Shown here piece by piece: positions 4,172 through 23,464 of a stretch of DNA of 64,000 bases (position 1 is the stretch's first letter; each line of letters begins with the position of its first letter). The translations under genes were made by a program, and so were the position numbers. Where the stretch lies: assembly GCA_030390025.1 (NCBI GenBank), contig CM059432.1:73658001-73722000 (forward strand), read 5' to 3'. This DNA comes from Squalus acanthias. Its lineage: Eukaryota. A model generated the notes under the pieces. The model searched no databases and was not told where the DNA came from. It saw only the letters and a list, made by a program, of their open reading frames with translations.

Positions 4172-5870
4172 TGTGTAAAGTTTCGCAATTATCGCGATTC
4201 GAAATAACGAGATAGAAGCAGATTCGTTTGATCAGTTTATTTAAACGAAATGCCGTCATGATTAAACAGGACACAGAAGCCTGTAAAATGGCCGCCGCGC
4301 ATCGTGGCAGAAGTTTCCAGAAGTACAGTGGGCAGACAAGATGGCGTTCGAATAAACATTTTCGATAAGCACTGATAAAGACAGGATGCAACCTGTTTGC
4401 ATTTGTGACAATAGCAAAAGATATGAGTGCTGGAATCGTTTTCCATGCACAAGTAAGGACCATTGTACTGGGCAATCGAAGGCCCATCCAGACACATCAA
4501 TACGCAAATACCCCCACGGCTCTACAATGAGAGAGCCATTCTCGGGTGATTAAACAAGTATTCGGGGGCCCCCAAAACCCAGCCAGGGAGGCTCCGAGCC
4601 GGTTCAACAATGGGGAAAACATTAACGGGTAGTTGGCCAGTCTCAGGTGCTACCGAAACCCGTTAAAGACAAGAATCACCCATGCTGGGAGTTTTGAGCG
4701 CCAATATTTCACAAAGGACAAACATTAAGATTTGAGTGGGAGATAAGGGAACATAGCACTATAACTATAGACAACAAATGTCCATCGCGCTCTTATTTTC
4801 TCTTATCTCGGCTGATGCTCTTGATTTGACCCTTATTCGCTTGATTCGTGCTCTTGTTTCTCTGGACTGTTGACTCTGGACTTTTAGCCGCACTGGACGG
4901 TTATTCGAATGTTGGGTGGAGCTCAATCGGGGCGAGCCACCTCGACGAAGGGCGAGTAACCGGGTGCACCATCCCGAGTGTCGGTAAACGGTGTTTTGGA
5001 CCCGAAGGCCCAAAGAGACGAGACGAGACGAGATGAGAAGAGAAGAAGAAGAATCCACGTGCCGCCGCGGTCAGTAAACCCCGACCGCGCCGAATTTATA
5101 CGAACTCTATCAGTTACTGCACGAACTGGTCATAGACTCTTCCTCGAATTTTATCGACAACTGGTGTCGATACAGGAAGACTCTTCTTTGAATTCTACCG
5201 GCAACTGGTGTCGGTCCAGGAAGACTTTTCTTTGAGTTCTACAGCCGGGCCCGAGCACTGTCGAGTTCTTCATGACAACAGGGAGCCCAGCCTGCTTGCA
5301 GCAGCAGCGAAGATAAACAAGTGGGGTACAGAGACCCCTCAAAACACGTGACAGTCAGGCGCTGCAGCGAAACGAGCCGAGCGCCTCACTTTAAAATTCT
5401 CCGAAGTATCACGAGTGATGAGCATGTTTCCCGATCCTCCAAATCTAGATGTAGTGTAGGTATTGATAAGGGAGGGTGGTTTTATTAAGGATAAAGTATA
5501 ATGTGTTCCCCTTTTTACGATGTGCCGTGCGTTCTTCATTACCATAGACCAAGCTTTATGAATGTATGCATACTTGTACTCTCGTTAATTTGCGCCTATG
5601 ACATGTACTTCATGATTTTGGACGCTATGCAATAAAGATTTCCATTTCATACTATTCAACCGGGTCTATTTTGAGTTTTTCTCTGCATTACTGCTCTCGC
5701 ACCTAAGTCCAGTGTTAGAACCATAAGGGCGAGTGGGTCGAACCACTCACAGGTGCTTATTGCAACAAGGCTGGCCGGAGACCAGAGCAAGCAATAGTAT
5801 TAGGCAACGAAGGCCTAACCCCGCACCAGCACCGTCTGCGATACAAGCACGACACAAAACCCCTTACACA
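4172..5870 (+). repeat. 5' LTR (~1699 bp) of the provirus
   Basis: Starts TGTGTAA (4172) and ends TTACACA (5870), a 7-bp inverted repeat. AATAAA at 5631. Followed after AAA by a TGG-starting PBS. No second copy in the window, so the 5' boundary rests on the inverted repeat and the switch from Harbinger sequence. Confidence 0.75.
5631..5636 (+). promoter_or_regulatory. LTR polyadenylation signal
   Basis: AATAAA ~235 nt before the LTR end, followed by T-rich sequence. Confidence 0.6.
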
Positions 5871-5873
5871 AAA

Positions 5874-5890
5874 TGGCGACCGCGGCAGGA
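5874..5890 (+). promoter_or_regulatory. Primer binding site, tRNA-Ser-like
   Basis: TGGCGACCGCGGCAGGA, 3 nt after the LTR end. TGGCG....CGGCAGGA resembles the complement of vertebrate tRNA-Ser 3' ends; isoacceptor not determined. Confidence 0.7.
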
Positions 5891-5944
5891 CTCTGGCAGC
5901 GAGAGAGTAATATTTTAGACCCTGGTGTGAATAGGCGAAATGTG

Positions 5945-7695
5945 ATGGATGAGAGGGTAGCCGACTATGTGTTTGGGAAGGTTAACTTAACCAAAAGGTG
6001 GATAAGTGACCTACTGATGGATAAGCGTCCGCTAGACGCAGCCATCAAATGGACAGGCAGTAAAGAGCATAAGAAGTCGGTAGAGAAAGCGGTCTGGCTG
6101 ATGTGCTACAAGAAGCAAGTCCAACTTTCGGACCAGGTCATTGTGGCACAGGCAGCTCAGATCAGGGATTTGGAGGTTGAGATGGAGGAAAAGATCGCGG
6201 GAGGACAGAAACTCATTGCATCCTTGAATGCGTTACATCAGGAACGCCAGATAGTAGCCAACCACCATGAGGCTAAAATTGATTACCTAGAGTGTCAGGT
6301 CACGGAAGCGAAATTAAACGAGGGTAGGATTAGAGAACGGTGTGCCCGCCTAGCTAACCAGATAAAAGCCCAGGAAGAAAGCTTGAAGGGAGTTAGGGCG
6401 GCATATAAGATGGCCCTCGAGGATAGGCATGAGGGAGTCGACCACAGTGTTTGCCAGAAGGAGTTAGGGAACCTAAGAGAGGCCCTGAATAAGGCAAACG
6501 GCTTGGTGTGCCTCATCAGCCCGTCAGCAAACCAGCCACAGGTGGGTAGGGAATTCCCAAAATCCCTACCAGACAAAGCAGAGGAGGTATTTGCCACTGC
6601 GCCCTCCGCGCCACCCAGCTATTCGGCAACCTGGGTAAGGGAGGAAGTGGTGGAAATAGAGAAGGAGGTTCCCGAGGCAGGACAATCCCCAGAGGTAGAG
6701 TCGAAACCGGGACCGATGTGTCCGCTCCAAGGTCACAAGAGAGGCCCGAATGGGGAAAATGGGGAGGACGGGGATGTCCTGAACCAGCTGGTATTGCCTC
6801 ACAGCTCACACCAGCTGAGAGCAATGATTAGCCATGTACGGAAGCTGTCCGAGTCAGACGACCCTTCCGTACACTTTAGGGAGGTAGAACAGACCGCAGC
6901 AATTAATGGCTGCGACAATGTGGAAAAGACCAAAATGTTGCTGTTCTCGTTAGATAGCTCGATCCTTCAGTGTCTATCAGACGAGAGCAAGAAGGGGAAT
7001 AAAACTTATGAGGAGTTACGGGACGAGGCCCTAGAAGTGTTAGGGGCGGATGACGAAGGTCCGTTCGTCAGATTGAGTCAAACCATACAGATGGAGGGAG
7101 AACCCCCGAAGGTTTTTGTCAGCAGGCTGTGGCCAGTATACCAGCGTAGCTGCCCAGGTGCGCCAGCGCGCCACCGCCTGGACGGTGCCTGTTTAACTCA
7201 TTGGCTCAGGTGTTTAGTAGCCAACAGTTTGCCAGCCGTCAGGGAGCAGGCCAAAGCGTGGTTTGATCCCACTAACCCCGCCACAACAGAGGAGTCGGTC
7301 CGAAATCGACTCACGATAGGGTATCGGAACACTAGGAGCACGGGAGCGCGTCCCCTTAAGGGAAAGGTGCATGAGGCACGGCCCGCAGCCCCGGCTCAAA
7401 AGGAGTGGCATCAGGAGGGAAACCGCACCCCACAAGCCAATGGTGCTTGTTACGGGTGCGGGAAGACAGGTCACTGGCGTAAGAACTGTAGGAACCCCTG
7501 GAAGGACTCCAGGGATAAAAATCCCGCAGCCCGAACCCAAGCGCCTGTCTCTGAGAGAGGAGCTGGTGTGCCAATAATCCCGATGCGATAGAATCAATGT
7601 TGGGAGCTATGCGGTCCCTTATGATTTCACCAGGAAGGGTGGCAGTCGCTACCGGCCTCACAGAGGCCACAACCCCGTCCACCGGTACCCAATGA
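5945..7695 (+). pseudogene. gag: Gag polyprotein; probable single frameshift at 7555-7589
   Basis: ORF 5873-7591, but its first ATG overlaps the PBS, so 5945 is the likelier start. Coiled-coil N-half, PSAPPSY, capsid-like region, CYGCGKTGHWRKNC zinc knuckle. The pol frame is open 7555-7692 up to TGA at 7693, suggesting the original gag end. Confidence 0.85.
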
Positions 7696-10600
7696 CTAGA
7701 GCCCGCGCAGCCCGTTTACCTCAGCTATGATGCGTGGAAAAGACCCCTGGTTGAGATGGAGGTAGAGAAGCAGAAGGGTAGTTATTTGTTGGACACGGGA
7801 GCTTCATGCACCGTGATTCATACGGATAGCCCCTTTGACTCACCGCTGTCTACCAAGGTCCCATACACATTAGCGGGGTTCACGGGAAAAGAGCAGGCTG
7901 GCGCGTTCTCCATTCCGCTCTCCATTCATTTAGGAGCACTCCACACCACATGGAAGTGCATACTGATGAAATGGCAAGAGGGGGGTGGCAGAGGTATCCT
8001 CGGATCGGATCTCCTATCGGAACACGGGATCCTCGTGGACCTTAGGAATCACTGTCTCTGGGGAGCCAAGGGTGGGAAAGGCAAGGTAGTTGTAATCCCG
8101 GGGAAGGAAGGTAAAGGGGCCCTGTGTACCATGAAGCCATCCGGAGGTTACGACCTCGGGCTTATGGTCGCGGATGTCCCAACGGACATGCAGACGTACG
8201 TGTCAGATAATATGCACGCGTTTGCAACCCACAAGCACGATTGTGGGAGGGTTACCAGGTTTGAGGTCAGCGTAGATGGGGACCCCATAACCCGGCCCCA
8301 AAAACAGTATAACTTCCCCAAAGAAGCAGAACCCGATATGGAGACAGCAATGTCCTCATTGGTGCAGCAGGGCGTGTTGAGGCCGATAGCCACACACGTG
8401 AACTCCCCATTATGGCCGGTGAGGAAGCCGGATAATTCGTGGAGGGCCACGGTGGACTACAGAGTCCTTAACAGTAACATCCCCGCCTGCGCGCCCACAG
8501 TAGCAGCAGTTGCTGACCTAATAGGGAGTATCCCAGCGTCCGCGACCACGTTCACGGTGCTGGATATCTCGAACGGTTTTTGGTCCATCCCGCTGCGGCG
8601 AGAGGACCAGTACAAGTTTGCCTTTACTTTCAAAGGACAACAGTACACATGGAACTGTTTGCCACAGGGTTTCCACAACAGCCCCAGTATTTTCCATCAG
8701 TGTATGGCAGGAAGTTTAAAGGAGTTTAGTCAGCCCAATCAGATAGTACAGTACGTGGATGATTTGCTCCTGTTCACGGGCTCAAGGGAGGAGCATGGAC
8801 CACTGCTAGCCGAGTTATTGGAGCTGCTAGCGAGGAAGGGTTTTAAAGTTAACCCTAAGAAAGCACGTATCGGTCAGCAAGAAGTAAAATTCCTAGGTCT
8901 GACCATTCGCGCTGGGGAAAGAGCCATAGATAAGGCTAGGAGGGAGTCGGTGCAGGAGTTACCAATTCCCAACACCATAACGGGTGTGAGGTCCTTTCTG
9001 GGACTGACCGGTTACTGTAGAGACTTCATCGAGGACTATGCGGCCACAGCAGCTCCGCTGCTCCGACTCCTCCATAAGGGAGTGGAGTGGTCTTGGGACG
9101 AGGGTTGCCAGGCTGCATTCGAGAAGTTAAAAAGGGATTTGCAGACCGCGCCAGCTTTAGGGGCCATAGATGGGGGGAAGGAGTTTTTCCTGGAGGTAGC
9201 TGCCAGCGGAGACAGCTTGAGCGCTGTGCTGCTCCAAGAGCGTCACGGCAAGCTGAGGCCGGTTGTCTATTCGTCCAGGGTGTTAACGGATGTGGAGAGG
9301 AGTTTCTCCAATTGCGAAAGGCATCTTTTAGCCACGCATTGGGCTGTGAAAAGATCAGTGATCTTCACAGGGCTCTCTCCCATCACTCTCCTCACCCATC
9401 ACATGCCAACTAAGATGCTTCTAGATGGGAGGATTAAGGATGGGACCGTAAGCAGCGCTCGTATTGCGCGCTGGACCCTTCTCCTTTCCCAGATGGATCT
9501 TAGAGTTAAAGGTCTTTGCGAGCCCAGGCTTGCGGCCAACTTGGTATACCCCGGAACAGCCCACCGGTGTTCGGTGGAAGGGGTGTGGGAGGTCAACATA
9601 GGTTTACGGGCCGGGATACATCCCACAGGTCGCGAGATTTATGTTGATGGTTCCAGCACAGTGTCCGCTGGCGAACGACTCACAGGGTGTGGAGTTTATG
9701 ACCCTGCGGCAGACCTTGCCCTGGCAATTAAACTCCCCAGCACCATGAGCGCACAGCAGGCTGAGCTGTCTGCGGTGGCGTACATCGTTAACCACCCAGA
9801 AATTTTCCCAACCCCATACACGATTTGTTCGGACAGTATGTTTACGTGCAATTCGTGTACGGAATACCTGGCCATTTGGTCCCGCCGTGGATACACCTCC
9901 GTGGACGGGCGACCTTTAACGGTGAAGCCCTTGCTGGAAAAGATCCTAGCAGCAGTAGGGGAGGAAGGGGAGATTTTCATCCATAAGGTGAAAGCTCACT
10001 CCTCCACAGAGCCCCGCGGGGAGGGCAACCAGCAGGCGGATGCGCTAGCCAGGGAGGGTGCCCGCAACGGCATTTTCTGGGACCCCTATGGACCCGGACC
10101 CGTGGCAGCAATCCAAGGCAGGGAAGGGAATCCCGGGAACACCAGGGTAGCACTGCCCCTAGACCTTAAGACCGTCCAGAACCAGGATCCCGCCCTAAAA
10201 GCAGTTCTCAGGACAATTACTGAGGGCAAGCAGGTAGAGGGCCCGTACAGTACGGCAACCCTCTCCGTTAAAGAAGGCATGCTGTTCCGCGAGGAACAGT
10301 GGGTTGTGCCGCAGCAGCACAGGAGGGAATTCCTCCAGTTGGCTCATGAGGGGCCGGGGGCAGGACACCCCGGGCCCGAGGTTACCTGGCAACGGGTAGA
10401 GCAGGCGGGATGGTGGCCGGGACTCAGGGAGCAGGTCCGCGAGTTCTGTGCAAACTGTCTTGTGTGCGCTGCAAACAACCCATACCCCCAGAAAAGGAAA
10501 GTGCACATGGGGCACATCAGGAGGGTGGAGGGACCATGGCAGTCGATACAGATCGATTACATAGGGCCCCTGCCCACCACCCAGGGAGGCTACAAATACT

Positions 10601-12177
10601 GCCTCGTCTTGGTGGATGTGTTTTCCAAATGGGTAGAAGCCTTCCCCTGTAGAACAGCTACGGCGCTGGGTACTGCTAAGATCTTGGTCCGGGAAGTGTT
10701 CTCGCGGTGGGGACTCCCCCGTTTTGTGGAGTCAGACCAAGGGAGTCATTTCACCGGCCAGGTGATGCAGAGCACCCTCATGCTTTTGGGCATTGAAGGG
10801 AAGTGGCACGTAGCGCACAATCCCCAGTCATCAGGGATTGTTGAACGCATGAACCGGACCCTAAAGGAGAAGCTGAGGAAAGAGACTATGAACTCACCCC
10901 AAAAATGGGCGGAGGTTCTGCCTCTAGTCCTCATGGGGATCCGGGCCAGTCAGTCGAAAAGTACGGGGTACTCCCCGTACGAGGTGATGACTGGTAGGAT
11001 CATGCGAACCCCCACCCATGTACTAGCCCCGGTGCTCACTGAGGGTCAGCTCCAAGAGGTGAAAAGGGACAAGTTTGTCCAGACCCTCTTGGAGCGCCTG
11101 AAGCAGGTTTACGAGCAGGCAGCTGGGAACATGGGAAGACAGCATCAGGGCAATCGCCTGTTGCTGGAACCCCGCAAGAAGCAGGAGTGGGAAGTCAGAG
11201 ATCAGGTCATGGTTAGGAACTATGCCAGAGTAGGGAGTTTGGAACCACTGTATATGGGACCCTACAGTATTGTAGATAAAGCGAGTCCCATGGTGTACGC
11301 CGTAAAGGTACCTCGGCGCACGAAATGGTTCCACATTAACCAGTGCAAGCTGTATAAGCCGGGTGCACAGGGGCCAACCACAGGGGCCAAAACTGCGAGT
11401 GGGGACTCGCAGCCCCGGGTAGGACCGCAGGGCACACAGACCGGTAAAGCAGCCTGCGAGAGGGGAGAGGACATTCTAGAAAGGTGTAGGATCTTTTCTT
11501 GGTGTTGGGATTCAGATGAGGAAGAGCTCGAGGAGCTCGACCAAGGTAGTGACCTGATCGGAGAGGTGCTGGGGTCGGAGGACGGAAGTTTCGTCCTCGA
11601 CTCAAGCTCAGGGGAGATAGGGGCTGCGAGTGGAGATCCACACAGGGTGGAATCAGAAACTGCAGATCCCGAGCCCAGGGGGGCGGAGCTAGGGGAGACG
11701 GAGCCAGCGGCTGTGGAAGGACCACAGGTCGTGACGGTGGAAGTCTCGGTACCCGGTCCGTCGGCCCTGGAAGTCTTGCCCTTGGGGGAGGTAGGGATTG
11801 CGAGTGGAGGACCACATACTGGGCCAAGTAGGGTGGAGCCAGAAACTGCAAATCCCGAGTTCAGGGGGGCGGAGCCAGGGGAGACGGAGCCAGCGGCTGT
11901 GGTGGGACCACAGGCCGTGACGGTGGAAGTCTTGGTTCCTGGTCCGTCGGCCCTGGAAATCTTGCCCAATGTAGCCCTCCGTAGGTCAAGTCAGACACCC
12001 CAGCCCAGGAAGTCGTGGTCAAGTCCCCCGTACGCCCCCAGGCGTAAGTTCAAGGTCAAGGCAACCCAGGGAGATCCCAGTCCCAGCGCAGCAGCGACAG
12101 GCTGCGGCAGATCAAAGGAAGGGGTCAGTGCCCTCCCACCACTGGGAAAAGCTCGTGGCAGCCTTCACAGAATTTAG
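7696..12177 (+). CDS. pol: Pol polyprotein: aspartic protease, RT, tether (degenerate RNase H), RNase H, integrase, long C-terminal extension
   Basis: LLDTGAS protease; LDISNGFW, LPQGF, YVDD RT motifs; FLEVAASGDSLSAVLLQ tether; IYVDGSS..AQQAEL..SDS..KVKAH..GNQQADALA RNase H; H-x6-H...CLVC zinc finger; QIDYIG, SDQGSHF, GIVERMN integrase; GPY module. No internal stops. Confidence 0.95.
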   Translation, partial: LEPAQPVYLSYDAWKRPLVEMEVEKQKGSYLLDTGASCTVIHTDSPFDSPLSTKVPYTLAGFTGKEQAGAFSIPLSIHLGALHTTWKCILMKWQEGGGRGILGSDLLSEHGILVDLRNHCLWGAKGGKGKVVVIPGKEGKGALCTMKPSGGYDLGLMVADVPTDMQTYVSDNMHAFATHKHDCGRVTRFEVSVDGDPITRPQKQYNFPKEAEPDMETAMSSLVQQGVLRPIATHVNSPLWPVRKPDNSWRATVDYRVLNSNIPACAPTVAAVADLIGSIPASATTFTVLDISNGFWSIPLRREDQYKFAFTFKGQQYTWNCLPQGFHNSPSIFHQCMAGSLKEFSQPNQIVQYVDDLLLFTGSREEHGPLLAELLELLARKGFKVNPKKARIGQQEVKFLGLTIRAGERAIDKARRESVQELPIPNTITGVRSFLGLTGYCRDFIEDYAATAAPLLRLLHKGVEWSWDEGCQAAFEKLKRDLQTAPALGAIDGGKEFFLEVAASGDSLSAVLLQERHGKLRPVVYSSRVLTDVERSFSNCERHLLATHWAVKRSVIFTGLSPITLLTHHMPTKMLLDGRIKDGTVSSARIARWTLLLSQMDLRVKGLCEPRLAANLVYPGTAHRCSVEGVWEVNIGLRAGIHPTGREIYVDGSSTVSAGERLTGCGVYDPAADLALAIKLPSTMSAQQAELSAVAYIVNHPEIFPTPYTICSDSMFTCNSCTEYLAIWSRRGYTSVDGRPLTVKPLLEKILAAVGEEGEIFIHKVKAHSSTEPRGEGNQQADALAREGARNGIFWDPYGPGPVAAIQGREGNPGNTRVALPLDLKTVQNQDPALKAVLRTITEGKQVEGPYSTATLSVKEGMLFREEQWVVPQQHRREFLQLAHEGPGAGHPGPEVTWQRVEQAGWWPGLREQVREFCANCLVCAANNPYPQKRKVHMGHIRRVEGPWQSIQIDYIGPLPTTQGGYKYCLVLVDVFSKWVEAFPCRTATALGTAKILVREVFSRWGLPRFVESDQGSHFTGQVMQSTLMLLGIEGKWHVAHNPQSSGIVERMNRTLKEKLRKETMNSPQKWAEVLPLVLMGIRASQSKSTGYSPYEVMTGRIMRTPTHVLAPVLTEGQLQEVKRDKFVQTLLERLKQVYEQAAGNMGRQHQGNRLLLEPRKKQEWEVRDQVMVRNYARVGSLEPLYMGPYSIVDKASPMVYAVKVPRRTKWFHINQCKLYKPGAQGPTTGAKTASGDSQPRVGPQGTQTGKAACERGEDILERCRIFSWCWDSDEEELEELDQGSDLIGEVLGSEDGSFVLDSSSGEIGAASGDPHRVESETADPEPRGAELGETEPAAVEGPQVVTVEVSVPGPSALEVLPLGEVGIASGGPHTGPSRVEPETANPEFRGAEPGETEPAAVVGPQAVTVEVLVPGPSALEILPNVALRRSSQTPQPRKSWSSPPYAPRRKFKVKATQGDPSPSAAATGCGRSKEGVSALPPLGKARGSLHRI

Positions 12178-12436: not shown

Positions 12437-13747
12437 ATGGAAAGGATTCTGATAGTGCTCGCAACGATCGGATATCGATTGGCCTATCGGGGCCTCACCA
12501 AGGATGTCGTTGTGTTTGGTTGCTCCGGGGACACGGCCCCCATCGTGACGGATGGGACCGGGGAGCGAAAGGCTGAGGAGACCGCCACTTATTTCCACAA
12601 GGGAAGGTGGCCGGGATGGCTGGGAACGAATTCGACGGAATACTCCAGCGCATCCGGATTTGCCTACAAAGAGACTTCTTTACTGTGCCCCAGAGTGAGG
12701 ATCATTGCACCCAGGATCAGCGTCACCGTCGGCAAAAGGATTTGTTTGACCTGCAATGGGAAGGTCCCATTGAGCCGATGGTGGTGGTTACGGAAGTTAA
12801 GCAAGACTATGAGAAATTCCTCGGTTGAGTGGGAGCGATTGGGTAACAATACCCATCGGACAATTACGGGGACTAACGGACAATTGAAAGTCTGTTGGGA
12901 CAAATGGTGGGAACCGGATGAGGGACTATATGTTTGTATGTGGGGATCGAAATACGTTTGCCCCAAGGGTATATCCATATTTTTCGTACACCAGTGGCAG
13001 GATAACGGGAAAGGGATGAGGTGGGATGTCAGCACAAAGGGGTGCGGAGCTCCATTCTCCCCGATCCCGGTAAACGCCACTGAACTCATCACGCGCCCAC
13101 GCAAGGCTCCGCCCATGATTCCGGTGGTTTTGGCTCAGGAGGAAGGGTGCCCTAAAGCCACTAAGGGGCCCGGGAATGGTTTGGTACTGGTCCCAACAGA
13201 CCAGATACTATTTCAGGGGGTACATTACGCGGTGGCCTCGGTGATTCTAAATCTCACCGAGGTGCGTTTACCAGAGTGGTGCCCCAAAGAGACGGAACAA
13301 TTGTACCAGGTCCTGTTGACAAACATGTTCAGACAATTCTACGAGTTTGATTTTGCAGAGATTGACAAAACAAGCTTGTACACCACACCACACGAAGTTT
13401 TGGGTCAGGTGGGGAGACAGAGAAGGGGCATTGTGAACGATATGTTCACCGCCTTTAATACAGGAACATCTGTGGTCAACGCTCTAGACAACGTGGAGCT
13501 GCAGACCCAGATCAATGGTTTAAAAACACAATTAAAAAGCATCCTCACAAGCGAAAACAAGGTAGTAGGGTCTGAGTTACATGAGGACCAGGCCATGACA
13601 CTACACTTAAAAGAGATTATAGCAGAGCTGGAGAAGCATGCGAGAACGGTAAATGCCCTGATCAGGGAAGATCGGAACGCATCCGATCAAGCTGCGCAGA
13701 ATGAGGTGTGCGTACTATACGGGGCGTGGTTACTGGGCGAGGGCCGC
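12437..13747 (+). pseudogene. env: Envelope glycoprotein (class I fusion type, N-terminal Ig-like domain), C-terminally truncated
   Basis: Splice acceptor ttttatctgatcacag at ~12409-12424 just upstream. Short hydrophobic N-terminus, six N-x-S/T sequons seen, RQRR furin site (13415-13426) followed by GIVNDMFTAF and a long heptad repeat. No TM anchor because the sequence switches to Harbinger DNA. Confidence 0.85.
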
Positions 13748-15013
13748 ACTAACACACTTCCTTCTTTCTTGGAGGAGAAGGTCACACACAACCTGAGACA
13801 GGAGGCTGCTATTGGAGAAGGCTGAGCCTGTCTGTACACTTCTTCCTCATGGAAGAAAGCAGGCTAGCCATTACAGACAGGAGGAGAGTAATGGCTGCGG
13901 TGAGTGGCAATGCTGGAAGAGGCATTACACTGGGTTTCTTCACACCGTATCCTCTTTTTCCCTTGTTCCTTCTATCTCATCCTACACAGTCTGCAGATTG
14001 CCAGTTATGGAAGGGCAGTAAATCAGTTGGCTCTCCTGTTGAGCCAGCCGACAGATTGGGCCTGGGGGTGAGGAGAGGAGCCAATCACGGATGGGGTCAA
14101 GGGCAGACAGCAGCCCACATTATTTTTTTAGAACTGCTGGTTAGGTCGCTCAATACCTGGTGAAAATGGGAGGAATCACTCCACCCAGTTGTACCTGAAA
14201 ACTGCAAACTACAACTAGCGTAGGATCCCTATTTGCATTTTTAAGCAGCCTCCCACTGGAAATAGGCATGTGTGATGCTTGCCCTACAGGCCCACCTGAA
14301 AATTGCATCTGTCGGGCCTTGAGCATCAATGTGACGGCCACGTTCCGCCCACCTCCTCAGTTTTTAGGCGAGAAATGGGGACCGGCAGTTGAAAATCATT
14401 CCCAATCAGTCAATGTGGAAATCTTTGGCAGATTAGTGTGTTTTTGTATTATTTTAAGGAGCCCTCCTGTTCTCTTTCTTATCTGATGATGAAGGTTTGC
14501 ATGAGTCCTTTCCCTGAGAGCATAGGGGGGAATTTTAAACCCCGCGCAGGGCAGAAACATTGCTACAGCCCCTGCACCCCTATTCCTGCCCTGGGTTAAA
14601 ATCGGGGCTGATGTAATTGTATTATAGAGTTAAATAATGGTTGTCTGAGAGGAGTGCAAGTGATTATCAACAGCATTTTGTTTTCTTCAGTTGGAGTGCA
14701 ACCTTTCTACTGGAAATAATTGGTCACAATTTCCTGCTTGTTGTCATATGCTGCTGGCAGTAGGTTGTCCTATGCCACCTCCTCTCTCTCATTGGCACCC
14801 TTGTCATGATCAAGGCATTGGTTGTCTCCACCTTCTTCCTCCTCATCTTTTGCAGTTGGGAGGTCCAATCCATTCTCAACTGCCAAATTCTGGCGCATAC
14901 TGCAAGCCACTACAATTCTTGACACCCTCGTTGGGCTGTCGTACTTCCCTGACCTATTCAGGCAACAGAAGTGGGACTTTAGAATCCCAATGGTGTTGTG
15001 TAGCACTCAATCC

Positions 15014-18501: not shown

Positions 18502-21500
18502 GGGCTCGATTTTGCCAGGCCCGAGGAGGCGGGATTGGAGGCGTGTGAGGTGGTAAAATTGCAAAAAATGGCGGGCGGGCCCGATCCCGCCTCCATCCCG
18601 CCTCCGAGCAATTTTACCAAATGTGTGTTTTCTGACCCCGTTTCCATCCCGCCTCCAAGAGGCGGGATAGGCCCTTAAGGCCCTTAACAACCAGTTAAGT
18701 GCCTCTATAATCCCATTTTGAGAGGCCTTTCTGATTTTACCACTTTTCCCACGTCCTGCACGTCTCCTCTGGAACACGCCAGTGAATCCTGGCGGCCTCA
18801 CAAGTGGATTGCTTACTAACAGCTGCAGCTCCACCATTAAAAAAGAGTTTTCAGCAATCATCATTTGCAGGTGGCAGAACTTTGTTGTCTCATGTCTGGG
18901 GGAACTTTTAGCAGGCATACCCATTGTTGTGGAAGTTTGGAGCCTGACACCCATCTCCAGTGTGACCTCCTGGGAAACCCCTCTCGCCACCTTGACTGAG
19001 CGCTTCCTCAACTGAGGCATATACCAGAGGCATGGGAACCATTTATTTCCTTTCCTCCTGGACATCAGATTCGGACGAAGACCAACCGTGGCAGCAGTAA
19101 AACCATGAACAACAGCACCACCAACAGCAGCAGCAACAATAGGAGCGCCAAGCTGCTGCTCACCCACCTGAAGCTGCACAGGCCAGAAGGCACCAGCGCG
19201 CGACCTCATTGCTGCAAGGGATGCAAGGGACGCACTCATCTTGGCCAGATTTGCTTAGCCTGCACAATCAAACACTTTTGCCTCGCACCTTCGTATCAGA
19301 CCATCGACAATGGCCAAGAACCTGCGGATTCCTATCACTCTGACTGCCATACTGACAATTGCAAGTCGCCCTAAGCCCTCAATGTGGAAGTCCCATTAGC
19401 GAAATGGCACACGCCACAACTGCAACAGTTTGCCATCAGAATTTTTTATGACAATAAGCAACTGATGGCTTTTCAAAATTAAACACAACATTACACCCAA
19501 GTGACTACCCTTGTGACTACTTGTGCATTATCTTCCTCTTACGTGTGCTCCTACATGGTGCTTCCCCTGTGGCTTCAGCAGATGTGGAGGCCCCTTGCTC
19601 ACTTTCTTGCTGCTCCTAACTCGACACCTTTGGCGGGCGTCCTCTGGGGTTGCTAAGCTGTGAGGGCTCGGCAACAGTCTGCTGCTCCTGCGGCTGTGCA
19701 GGGGTTGAGACGCCGATCTCAGTTGGGTGGGGACTCTGGTGGGGCTCTGACTGAGGGCACTGCAGTGGCATGGTCGTGTGAGCGCTTGGAGAGGAGCCCC
19801 CACTTCCTTGTTGTATGCCACCAACATCCCTCTCATGGGTGAGCCCCACTTCAGAGCTAGCAAGTGGCTGGACAGCACCTTGCTGCACTGCAGGGGGACC
19901 ATGAGGACCCATTTCTGCACTGGAAGTCCTACTCCAGAGGACTTGCATGAAGGTCTGGTTTGTTTGCTCAATAGCTGACCATCGCTCCTCAAGAGATGTC
20001 AGTCTATTCTGAACAATGACCATATTTTCCATACCCTGGCAACTAAGCTCCTCCATGGACGTAGCCATCCTCTCCTCTACCGTAGCCATCCTCTCCTCTA
20101 CGGTAGCCAGCCTTACCATGGAGGTAGACATCCTTTACAAGGAGGTTGCCATCCTTTCCGTGGTGATGCGTTCATGCGCCAATGCCTCCACAAAGGCTCT
20201 GCTCATGTTAGCGATGGACTCCTCCATTCGCTCCACACTCGCAGCGACCCTGGAGACAAAACCTGCCAGAGACTCCTGCACCTGTTCCTGAAGTTCCAGC
20301 ACCGCTCTCCTTCTGGATGGACCCGGAGGCACAGGGTCAACATACAGCGGAGCCGAGCTGGAAGCGTCCTCTCCACTGCGACAAGGACTCTCCACTGCCG
20401 TTCCTGTCTCCACCATCTGCTGATGCTCACTTGTGAGCTGTGATACACCAGGTGACAACTCTACTCTATGTCCCGAAGGTCCCACCGAGGTGTGAGTGTC
20501 TGCGCTGGTGCTGGGTGCGCTTAATTCTGCTGACGGAGCACCCTCAGAGGTTGCAGCTTCCTCTGAGGAGTCTGGAAGCTCAGGCTCTTCCTCCTGGACA
20601 GTGGGGACGGGTGCTCTCGATGGTCCTGTGGGGGAGTAAAGGAAAGAGTTAGAGATGTAAGGTAAAGGTTGCATGCACATTGAATTGTGCAGATCATCAT
20701 AAGTCAATCTGTTAGAGCATCAGAATCATTATCAGTCACTCATGCAATGTCAATGAGAGAGATGCAAAACTATTCTGTCACCAGCTTGCTGTGATGCGTC
20801 CGCCTGTCCGTCCCCCACTTGGGAATCCTCCTCAATCCCGGCAATTTCCAGGGCCGCCTCCTCCGAGGTGGTGAGCTGGGCTACTGAGGGTGGCCCTCCT
20901 CCTGTCCTCGCACTTTCCCTCTTATTGTGGACTCTCTTTTCCTGCAATGAGGGACACAAGTGGAGTTTGAGTGAGAATGAAGGAGTGAGTGTAGAGAATC
21001 CATAGCATCGATGCTTAGAAGGAGACAAAGGGCCCTTCCTGTGTGTTGTAAGTTGTTGTCATTGCGTCACAGTGATAGTGAGTGTGAGGGCTGCATGGTC
21101 GAATAGTTAAGTGAATGTGACCATAGAGAGAGAGAGAATGGGTAAGGGTGCAGGGATGTCAGTGTCAAGTGGGATGTGGAGGAAGAGGTTGGCAAAGCAG
21201 AGTGCTGGTGAGGAGGAGCGATGGGGATGAGATTGAGGGTGATGAGAAAGTCATACTCACTTTTCCTGTGCGGAAAAGGTCATGAAACCTCTTCCTGCAC
21301 TGAAGCCAGGTTCTGCGGCACATAGAGATGGCATTGACCTCCTGGGCCACTTGCAGCCACACAGCTTTAGTCTGTTGTGGTGGCTTTTTTCTCCCTGAGG
21401 AAGGGAAGAGCACCTCCTTATTAGATCTTGCTCCCTGCACCAGAGCTTGGAGGGAGGGCTCATCAAAGCGAGGTGCATACTTTTGCTTGCTGGTAGACAT

Positions 21501-21780
21501 GGTCGGTAAATGAAGTCCTTCATACAATGTCCAAAGTGTTTCCAGTCTCCAGAAGAAGCAAGGCTGCTTGCAGGCCTTAAATCCAGCAGCACTGATGACG
21601 TCATCGGAGGCGACTTTCAGGATGGAAAGACTAATTGGGCCAGGGGTTCCTACACGCTGGAAATCAAGTGCCCAATTAGGGGAAAATCGCACTTTTTTCC
21701 CACTTCACATCGGAGTCGGGGTCCTGACACGAAAACCACCTGACACGCCCCAGCCCGACCCCAATGGCAATATCGAGCCC
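18502..21780. mobile_element. Harbinger element A (transposase deleted; retains Myb/SANT gene)
   Basis: TIRs GGGCTCGATTTTGCC / GGCAATATCGAGCCC, TAT TSD on both sides. Only a Q-rich 5' transposase remnant (~18950-19300) remains. Confidence 0.9.
19616..21500 (-). pseudogene. Harbinger Myb/SANT-like DNA-binding protein, 3 exons (21500-21261, 20941-20782, 20625-19616), one in-frame stop at 20135
   Basis: APRFDEPSLQALV...W..VA..VN...RTW.QCRKRFHDL trihelix motif; canonical GT/AG sites with consistent phases; TGGG motif in exon 2. Confidence 0.85.
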
Positions 21781-22303
21781 TATGACTCTATGGGGGAAAA
21801 ATTCAGTTGGTTGCGCCTCCCGTTAGCGCCTTAAGAGGGCGCTAATGGGGCGTTAAGGCGCTAACGCCCGGACGCAGCGCTGTTTGCGCCGCTCGAGAAC
21901 TTAACTTGAGATTGTGCGGCGGCGCTAAAACTTACCGCTGCGACCACCTGCGCGCGCAGATTGTGACGTCATTCCATGGTGCAACGCCCTTGGGGCGCCC
22001 CGGAGCGGAAATTGAGTGGCGCCCCCTGCCTTACCGCCTGGCGCTTCCAACGACCGGAAGACTGGAACGTTATCAATCGGTGTGGGGCTGGGGGGGGCGC
22101 TATTTAAAGGGGGCCTCTTCCTGTCTTTTTCTGTGGTCGACATTTATGCACCACTCGTTCTGAGAGAGAGAGAGAGATTCGGAGAGAGAGAGAGAGAGAC
22201 TTCTACATTGACTCAACGCTTTGTGAGGTAGTTTTGCCTAGTTCATCCTAACTTTGCTGCTACTTTAGTTGCTGTACCTCATTACTTTTCTGGCAAAGAG
22301 AAT

Positions 22304-23464
22304 ATGGGGGCTGCAATGATTGGGGGCGTCGTCCTGCTCCAGCTCAATCGGAGGATAGTGAGACGCAGACAGAGAGTGGCAATGATGGCCAGACGGAGGA
22401 GGGCCATCAGGCGCATGTACAGGAGAGCTTACCCTCCCAGGGTATATCGTGAACAGCTCTCCTACATCCATATGTCCGAGGAGCTGTGTTTGCGAAGGCT
22501 GCGATTCAGCAAGGAGGTGGTCACTGAGCTCTGCCACCTGCTGCAGCCAGATCTGCAGCCTCAGCTGAGGTCCAGGACGTCTCTGTCGGTGGCAGTGAAG
22601 GTCACAGTGGCTTTGAACTTCTACGCCACTGGCTCATTCCAAGCTGCTGTTGGGGACCTCGCCAATATCTCCCAGTTTGCGGTGCATCGCTGCATCCGGC
22701 AGGTCACCAATGCCCTCTTCACAAGGAGACGAGACTTCATCTCCTTCCCTATGACCCCAGACAAGCAGCATGACCGTGCTATGGGCTTTGCGAGGGTAGC
22801 GGGCTTCCCCATGGTGCAGGGCGCCATTGACTGCACGCATGTGGCTTTGCGTGCTCCGCGAGAGAATGCAGAGGAGTTCCGGAACAGAAAGGGGTTCCAT
22901 TCCTTGAATGTGCAGTTGGTCTGTGACCACAGACAGGTGATTCTTGCTGTCAATGCCCACTATGCGGGCAGCTGCCACGATGCTTTCATCCTGCGCCAGA
23001 GTACTGTGGCAGAAATTTTCGAGGCACCGCATCAGCCAGTTGGTTGGCTTCTGGGGGACAAGGGGTACGCATTGAGCACCTGGCTGATGACACCGCTCCG
23101 TGCGCCAAACACCCCTGCTGAGCTGCGGTACCAGGAAAGCCAACAAGCAACCAGGAACATTATTGAGCGCACAATCGGCGTGCTGAAACAACGATTCCGC
23201 TGTCTGGACCATTCTGGAGGAGCCCTGCAGTACTCGCCTGAGCAAGTTTCGAAATTCGTAGTCGTGTGCTGCATGTTGCACAACATGGCAATCCTCAGGA
23301 CGCAGCCAATGCCACCAGGCCTTGCAGCACCACAAGAGGAGGAGGAGGAAGAGGAGGAACAGGACGAGGACGATGATCAGCAGCAGCACCAAGGCAGGAG
23401 GGCGGCCCACAATGGTCAAACTGCAAGGGCCGTCCGTCAACGACTAATAGCAAGCCGCTTCTAG
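22304..23464 (+). CDS. PIF/Harbinger DDE transposase, 386 aa, intact
   Basis: GAIDCTHV, NRKGFHSLNVQ, GSCHDAFIL, LLGDKGY, RNIIERTIGVLKQRFRCL, CCMLHN motifs; TATTTAAA at 22100 upstream. Confidence 0.95.
   Translation: MGAAMIGGVVLLQLNRRIVRRRQRVAMMARRRRAIRRMYRRAYPPRVYREQLSYIHMSEELCLRRLRFSKEVVTELCHLLQPDLQPQLRSRTSLSVAVKVTVALNFYATGSFQAAVGDLANISQFAVHRCIRQVTNALFTRRRDFISFPMTPDKQHDRAMGFARVAGFPMVQGAIDCTHVALRAPRENAEEFRNRKGFHSLNVQLVCDHRQVILAVNAHYAGSCHDAFILRQSTVAEIFEAPHQPVGWLLGDKGYALSTWLMTPLRAPNTPAELRYQESQQATRNIIERTIGVLKQRFRCLDHSGGALQYSPEQVSKFVVVCCMLHNMAILRTQPMPPGLAAPQEEEEEEEEQDEDDDQQQHQGRRAAHNGQTARAVRQRLIASRF

Follow-up and report, generated by a model that had tools for sequence, protein, structure and literature searches.

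In retroviral envelope proteins (Envs) of the gamma type, an IgV-like N-terminal receptor-binding domain (RBD) followed by a proline-rich region is the standard arrangement, and an alpha-like Env has captured the IgV domain of the host protein SIRP, RBDs being known to move between Env groups (bioRxiv 10.1101/2024.03.17.585361). The class Ib fusion protein F has been described as a minimal scaffold able to accommodate binding modules either N-terminally, as in coronaviruses, or internally, as in foamy viruses; both virus groups are proposed to have added receptor-binding modules to an F-like scaffold, the intermediates having been lost (PMC11468914). In CrocERV31, a crocodilian endogenous retrovirus (ERV), nectin3 (three Ig domains, ~76% identical to the host protein) replaces env (PMC4299795). 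ERVs resembling snakehead retrovirus (SnRV) are known in cartilaginous fish, as CmiERV lineage I of the elephant shark (PMC4422223), and belong to clade Huo (PMC6001957). Five chondrichthyan genomes screened for lokiretroviruses are not marked as hosts in PMC7947760.

We analyzed a 64-kb stretch of the Squalus acanthias genome (the window), in which an earlier note had described an Ig domain at the N terminus of an F-like retroviral Env and regarded it as a candidate new system. Set against the literature the novelty is lower than that, as an Ig head with a proline-rich linker and the capture of a host IgV domain are both known from gamma/alpha-type Envs (bioRxiv 10.1101/2024.03.17.585361). 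The argument that an F-type core usually needs a separate attachment protein is likewise weakened, class Ib scaffolds with binding modules of their own having been described (PMC11468914). The new part is the combination of an Ig head with an F-type core. No earlier report of it on a retroviral Env was found in the openly accessible literature searched, which included neither Repbase nor journals behind subscription nor the publication on the SnRV genome, nor did the same literature yield an Env description for this large, recently expanded cartilaginous-fish ERV family, which we flag here.

A provirus and its family in the Squalus acanthias genome

The window contains a provirus with the following features, the parts of env being given by amino acid (aa) as well.

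4174..5870 (+): 5' LTR of ~1.7 kb, starting with TGT; matches both LTRs of other copies over 4174 to ~5869
5873..7591 (+): gag, an open reading frame with one CCHC zinc knuckle (zf-CCHC, E 0.0019)
5874..5891 (+): primer-binding site (PBS) complementary to host tRNA-Arg(TCG), overlapping the first gag ATG (5873)
7696..12177 (+): pol frame, open from stop to stop, with protease, reverse transcriptase (RT), tether-like RNase H, second RNase H and integrase (reading frame and Pfam)
12437..12490 (+): probable signal peptide, env aa 1-18, from the hydrophobic start and a helix at 2-16 in the model
12491..12685 (+): conserved pre-Ig arm, env aa 19-83 (52-60% identity between families; pLDDT <50 in both models)
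12686..12988 (+): very probable IgV-like domain, env aa ~84-184, with Cys106, Trp115-117 and Cys167 and the extra Cys103/Cys153 and Cys84/Cys175
12989..13147 (+): linker, with a proline-rich stretch at aa 206-229 (13052-13123); pLDDT <50
13148..13752 (+): N-terminal half of the class Ib (F-like) fusion core, from Cys238, ending abruptly at 13752
13415-13426 (+): furin-type site RQRR, aa 327-330, inside the core
13753..13825 (+): continuation of the env frame in unrelated DNA; past 13752 there is no match to family copies

The pol frame matches the Pfam families RVP, RVT_1, RT_RNaseH/_2, RNase_H, Integrase_H2C2 and rve. No LTR pair occurs within the 64-kb window, the 3' LTR being absent together with the 3' part of env and its transmembrane (TM) anchor; identity to other copies stops at 13752, and the window copy cannot make a membrane-anchored Env. 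A natural full-length Env from the same genome (P0002, 783 aa) was used as the query for searches and folding.

Elsewhere in the genome (3.7 Gb searched) the family returned 8,666 candidates, and all 96 matches that were scored are 95-100% identical. By hand count, ~39 of these 96 copies have an unbroken 789-codon env frame, and in four of six loci the LTR pairs are 97.4-99.7% identical. This is a large, young and recently expanded ERV family. Its PBS motif has 431 genomic matches, as against 0 for the control, and tRNA-Arg(tcg) was found in all three loci scanned. No env splice joint was present among the 15 listed of 29 joints, which came from four runs presumed to be RNA with short contigs over the element.

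The first gag ATG lies three bases past the LTR and overlaps the PBS, so that the PBS would encode the N terminus of Gag. The same overlap, with no leader between, was seen in the window and in three of nine loci scanned with one PBS pattern; it occurs in L045, L046 and L066, the last of which has a different PBS sequence. A second peculiarity concerns pol, which is deleted with env kept in at least six of the 20 closest copies (L002/L054, L003, L005, L007, L011 and L017), the end of gag (window ~7624) being joined to the end of integrase (~11340-11380); five of the six carry the 789-codon env frame. In amplified ERVs the loss of env is the usual pattern, and the reverse found here suggests that env-keeping defective elements spread with a helper. 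The acidic pol extension after integrase contains a 138-nt direct repeat, 91% identical (window 11644-11967). Further along the window there is an open Harbinger-type DDE transposase of 410 aa (22232-23464, +; DDE_Tnp_4, E 2e-37) which, with a divergent Myb/SANT-like frame recognized by eye (21165-21704, -), makes up an ordinary transposon. Elsewhere in the genome, long tandem arrays with a period of ~1,623 nt (G000:C26:38.99-41.89 Mb) include tRNA-Arg(TCG) genes along with tRNA-Ser(GCT) genes.

Position among retroviruses

The earlier note had expected a lokiretrovirus, an assignment that the RT does not favor. Counted by hand on the printed alignment rows, the element shares 93 of 188 positions with SnRV (49%), but only 69 with Loki-Lca and 63 with Loki-Xtr (34-37%), and its RT motif reads LPQGF as against PFG in the Loki rows. 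An RT tree, from which the short L051 (86 aa) was left out, places the element among RTs of retrovirus type, in a clade (97/97) with pols from a frog, a coelacanth and its own genome, inside the LPQG group; this tree had no SnRV or Loki row and the group assignment rests on the hand count. The viral contigs searched contained no retroviral RT relative. The PBS matches host tRNA-Arg(TCG), and a tRNA-Arg PBS is presumably a feature of SnRV as well. From these sequence comparisons the element is probably SnRV-like. A pol with dual RNase H and an F-like Env are both present; being shared with other retrovirus groups, they are not diagnostic of lokiretroviruses.

A probable Ig-like domain at the N terminus of Env

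With Met1 of env at 12437, aa 86-185 correspond to positions 12692-12991. The motifs that had been noticed there are all in place: ISVTVGKRICLTC ending in Cys106 (12752-12754), Trp115-117, GQLKV at 148-152 and DEGLYVC ending in Cys167 (12935-12937). The two cysteines are 61 aa apart, and the linker that follows is proline-rich as described, with seven prolines in aa 206-229. The region thus has the B-strand Cys, the C-strand Trp, the F-strand D-x-G/A-x-Y-x-C and a Cys spacing within ~55-75 by which membership was judged. An Ig-type pattern of this kind (B-strand Cys, Trp, D-x-G-x-Y-x-C), which was written after the sequence had been seen, occurred in none of 20,000 shuffles of aa 20-237.

Searches against Pfam gave a match to Ig_3, but below the curated threshold: the translated window segment 12692-13012 scores E 0.024 and 15.5 bits (aa 92-167) and P0101 18.6 bits, against a cut-off of 30 bits. 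In an alignment of the heads (A3), 11 of the 14 rows match Ig_3 at E<=1 (best E 0.0011), the window row as trimmed in it gives no match and none of the heads reaches the cut-off. Used as a profile, the 14 homologues have the IgV domain of CRTAM as their best PDB match (E 0.02), aligned gap-free over positions 12-103 (92 positions) with both Cys in register; next after it comes an ArfGAP zinc finger (E 0.036). A first profile (A1), diluted by long rows, produced no Ig match under E 0.46, and neither the window Env nor the full-length copy, each used as a single-sequence query, had a significant match in the PDB. Cys106 is invariant in 14 of 14 rows and Cys167 in 13, and Cys103 and Cys153 are also invariant in all 14. 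On what we take to be the standard Ig numbering, aa 150-167 fit the V-domain register without gaps, and Cys103 and Cys153 face each other on strands B and E. Controls with shuffled sequences point the same way: under an HMM of 47 host V-set exons, each of the 11 heads of the window type beats at least 298 of its 300 shuffles. In the Atlas the named matches are all Ig clusters, with a score of 0.90 that 4-10% of shuffled proteins equal.

In an AlphaFold model of aa 18-217 (mean pLDDT 40) the strands come in Ig order, and strands A' to F appear again in the full-length Env, with pLDDT 45-60 over the domain; the order is A'-B-C-(C')-D-E-F in both models. Foldseek listed 48 rows for the head model, all of them antibody, TCR or CD8 chains judging by entry and size, at E 0.008-0.04 and none at E<=0.001, and the top match in VIA (Z 5.5, rmsd 2.9, 89 aligned) has a Z within the tool's range of common arrangements. 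Compared with the two-sheet Greek-key beta sandwich of an Ig domain (strands A' to G), the models agree in strand order and have Ig folds as their only structural matches, but with a pLDDT of 40-60, a Z of 5.5, a G strand that is not formed in the full-length model and Foldseek values short of E<=0.001. Two extra conserved Cys pairs, Cys103/Cys153 and Cys84/Cys175, suggest that the domain may be a rigid unit.

Each single test is sub-threshold, and yet the evidence from profiles, models and shuffle controls all agrees, for which reason we hold an Ig fold to be probable. Env aa ~84-184 would, with high confidence, constitute an IgV-like domain.

A class Ib fusion core behind the domain

The description of the downstream region as F-like proved well founded, both structure and profile matches leading to F and foamy Env. 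A profile of 42 homologues matches foamy virus Env (E 8e-4 and 5e-3), and the model of the full-length copy from the same genome aligns over aa 245-656 to paramyxovirus/pneumovirus F, Foldseek giving hPIV3 F at E 6e-11. VIA values for the core are Z 10.9-12.1 (at Z 12.1, rmsd 5.9 with 318 aligned). The top 12 rows of a wide structural search consist entirely of F and foamy Env entries; among predicted viral structures, lispivirus, baculovirus F and walleye retrovirus Env match the core as well. The full-length copy also has RQRR at aa 327-330, a long heptad helix at 351-444 and a hydrophobic helix from 730. The core is a class Ib fusion protein with the domain I-II-III fold. Its match to F begins at env aa 245, corresponding to F residue ~29, so that the Ig head lies wholly N-terminal to the scaffold.

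Heads and headless forms at one junction

A representative search gave 51 related proteins, and searches of the S. acanthias genome itself added more families. In all 28 Envs examined the core starts with the motif Cys-Pro...Gly-hydrophobic, with 19-279 residues ahead of it. The junction is fixed, and before it stand either one of seven types of head (A-G) or, in three headless Envs (P0039, P0049 and P0052), a signal peptide directly before the core. Type A is that of the window, and the domain is conserved in relatives from skate, sawshark and whale shark elements. Type B comprises P0014 of Chiloscyllium, auto-named 'Ig-like domain-containing protein' in UniRef, along with own-genome families; type F belongs to two frogs, and type G (P0037) is V-set-like (Pfam V-set E 0.045), with no PDB match for its head. 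Types C (L049-L051), D (P0013/P0024/P0032) and E (L052/L055) are Cys-rich heads of 150-280 aa that have no Pfam or Atlas assignment, P0013 having been searched in the Atlas for type D; they are possibly new folds or decayed Ig domains.

Between the seven types hhalign detected no similarity in any of the 21 pairs (probability <=1.2%), the alignments being shallow. No Ig Pfam match was found in the six heads searched of types B, C and E. Under the HMM of host V exons, four of six type B rows score above all 300 shuffles, as do both type F heads, and the G head is above 298. Type C is borderline (7-13 shuffles as high, three rows), type E mixed (1 and 59) and type D negative in all three rows.

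In a tree of the cores, which has no true root and in which long branches were flagged, A is sister to C, D and E (100/100); G (P0037) and a headless Env form another sister pair (97/92). A single clade of the Ig-bearing Envs A, B, F and G is rejected (p-AU 3e-47). From the placement in this tree and the rejection of a single clade it follows that gain, loss or replacement of a head happened repeatedly. The three headless relatives, together with all lokiretrovirus Envs, indicate that the core family can work without a head. An apparent conflict between the env and pol trees, with the Env core grouping with C/D/E and the RT with type B, did not reach significance (p-AU 0.12).

The Env of the skate Rhinoraja longicauda (P0003) is 77% identical to that of the window family, while sister families in the same genome are ~70% identical, hinting at movement between hosts. 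In the sawshark Pristiophorus japonicus (P0005), pieces of Env are joined in gene models to Niban 1 and to a zinc-finger gene; these fusions are possibly exonization or annotation artefacts.

Origin of the head

The earlier note had proposed that the domain was captured from the host. The canonical B-F cysteines and the CRTAM-like alignment make an old capture plausible as far as sequence features go, but the donor was not found. When the head profile was used as a query, all the homologues it brought up were viral (5 of 7,745 candidates). The highest score among 47 host V exons was 9.1 bits, where shuffles reached at most 4.9; these exons were taken from 50 among the 150 highest-ranking V-set matches, a set that may omit CADM, CRTAM and nectin genes.

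The same failure of profile search and V exons to produce a donor speaks for another origin, in which the Ig head came from another virus (e.g. as a gamma-type IgV-like RBD) or was ancestral and later lost or replaced, without capture by this lineage. RBDs are documented to have passed from one Env group to another (bioRxiv 2024.03.17.585361), the domain is common to skate, sawshark and whale-shark elements and must be old or have moved between hosts, and types C and E, with their borderline scores under the HMM of host V exons, may represent Ig domains that have decayed. A counterargument is that the shark head has retained the canonical B-F cysteines, a pair that the retroviral RBD-C is without (bioRxiv 2024.03.17.585361); in addition, the Ig-bearing Envs are rejected as one clade and have heads without similarity, as would be expected from repeated gains; ancestral presence with losses would give the same. 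We regard a non-capture origin as a tentative possibility deserving attention.

The tree data fit both repeated gain and an Ig head that was ancestral and subsequently lost or decayed. On the former reading, which we likewise put forward only tentatively, a fixed N-terminal slot in the F-type Env of aquatic-vertebrate retroviruses would have been filled several times independently by host Ig-superfamily (IgSF) domains, each serving as a receptor-binding head. It would count at least four unrelated Ig-like heads (shark, frog and others) beside the Cys-rich and headless forms, a tally as provisional as the reading itself. If repeated capture is true, these Envs would be a natural record of a bare class Ib fusogen acquiring its own attachment module. 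Since the headless state and several heads occur at one junction among close relatives that share a core, the step of module gain can be studied on a tree.

Selection and the possible role of the head

The Ig region is 55-74% identical between families; synonymous sites are saturated in four of five pairs, and in the remaining one dN/dS is 0.14. Among seven close copies its pN/pS is 0.18, with 0.19-0.21 for the core. This purifying selection on the Ig region implies that the domain had a function while the virus was replicating. Constraint is equally strong on the pre-Ig arm, with 52-60% identity between families and dN/dS of 0.09-0.31 where estimable, and the Ig domain is therefore not set apart by selection. 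The linker, at 47-55%, is the least conserved part of the ectodomain. Receptor-binding domains often evolve fast, and the strong conservation of head and arm would fit a structural role too.

The Env is a single chain in the order signal peptide, short arm, Ig domain, proline-rich linker and class Ib core. Cleavage at RQRR would separate F2- and F1-like parts, the latter held by the TM anchor in full-length copies, and the head would stay on the F2-like surface subunit. There it may bind a host surface protein, replacing the separate attachment protein of paramyxoviruses, and may be an exchangeable module like the RBDs of gamma-type Env. Ig domains typically bind other Ig-superfamily proteins. 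It is somewhat likely that the Ig head, retained on the surface subunit, serves this F-type fusogen as its own attachment module by binding a protein on the host cell surface; functional precedent for binding heads exists (PMC11468914; bioRxiv 2024.03.17.585361).

Alternatively, the head could be a structural cap or trigger that packs on the prefusion trimer and stabilizes or shields it, binding being left to the core or the pre-Ig arm. The strong and even purifying selection over arm, Ig domain and core would suit such a part, as would the existence of headless Envs with the same core and the rigid unit suggested by the extra Cys pairs. A low-confidence proline-rich linker between head and core argues against it, and unrelated heads at the same position are hard to fit with one specific packing surface; we consider a cap unlikely. 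Less likely again is a role as immune decoy or modulator, in which the head would imitate host IgSF proteins (CRTAM/CADM, CD300-like or TCR-like) and not bind an entry receptor. The best sequence match of the head, CRTAM, is a T/NK-cell receptor, and an ERV with env replaced by nectin3 has been described (PMC4299795); nevertheless, the similarity to host proteins is marginal (E 0.02; best exon 9.1 bits), too low for close mimicry, and in all copies examined the head is fused in frame to the fusion core, with no separate secreted gene. Just as improbable is another small Cys/Trp-rich beta domain resembling Ig by chance, since the sub-threshold score of every single test, the failure of the window row alone to match Ig_3 and the ArfGAP zinc finger close behind CRTAM are set against five different methods that arrive at the same fold and register, the shuffle controls and the automatic naming of the related P0014 as Ig-like.

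Comparison with known systems

Lokiretrovirus Env is of the same F-like type and shares with the shark element the R-x-K/R-R site, the GP-x-x-G-hydrophobic core-start motif and the dual RNase H pol. It differs in the head: 22 of the 23 Envs printed in PMC7947760 pass from signal peptide to core motif and the other one is a C-terminal fragment, so that the domain, as the earlier note had allowed might not be the case, is absent from the published lokiretrovirus Envs. The word 'immunoglobulin' does not occur in the accessible main text of PMC7947760, PMC13524379, PMC9040795, PMC12440569 and PMC12583693, and occurs once in PMC11521997, in a context that is not visible. SnRV has the closest RT of the three rows counted, and presumably a tRNA-Arg PBS as well; the parts covered of PMC4422223 and PMC6001957 contain no Env domain description for SnRV-like ERVs. 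CrocERV31 resembles the shark ERV, as read here, in having host IgSF sequence in a non-class I/II ERV of an aquatic vertebrate (PMC4299795). There nectin3 replaces env, whereas the shark ERV has an env of working type with just one Ig domain, strongly diverged, as a fusion.

The core fold of the shark Env is the same as that of foamy Env, coronavirus spike and paramyxovirus/pneumovirus F. Paramyxovirus F is without a head, and the Ig head of the shark Env occupies the coronavirus position and not the foamy one; in foamy viruses the RBD has a novel fold and sits as an insertion ahead of the furin site (PMC11468914), in contrast to the small, N-terminal, Ig-like module found here. The order of IgV-like domain, proline-rich linker and fusion machinery is that of gamma-type RBD-C (MLV, FeLV, Env-Pb1) and of the SIRP-like RBD of Env-Dbi. 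The head of the Env-Dbi type is host-derived, has the canonical B-F disulfide and aligns clearly to its donor, unlike the shark head, for which no donor could be identified. Finally, the gamma/alpha-type Envs have an orthoretroviral SU/TM core (bioRxiv 10.1101/2024.03.17.585361) and the shark Env a class Ib (F-like) one, and our reading would thereby extend the acquisition of Ig-type heads from gamma/alpha-type Env to a second, unrelated fusion core.
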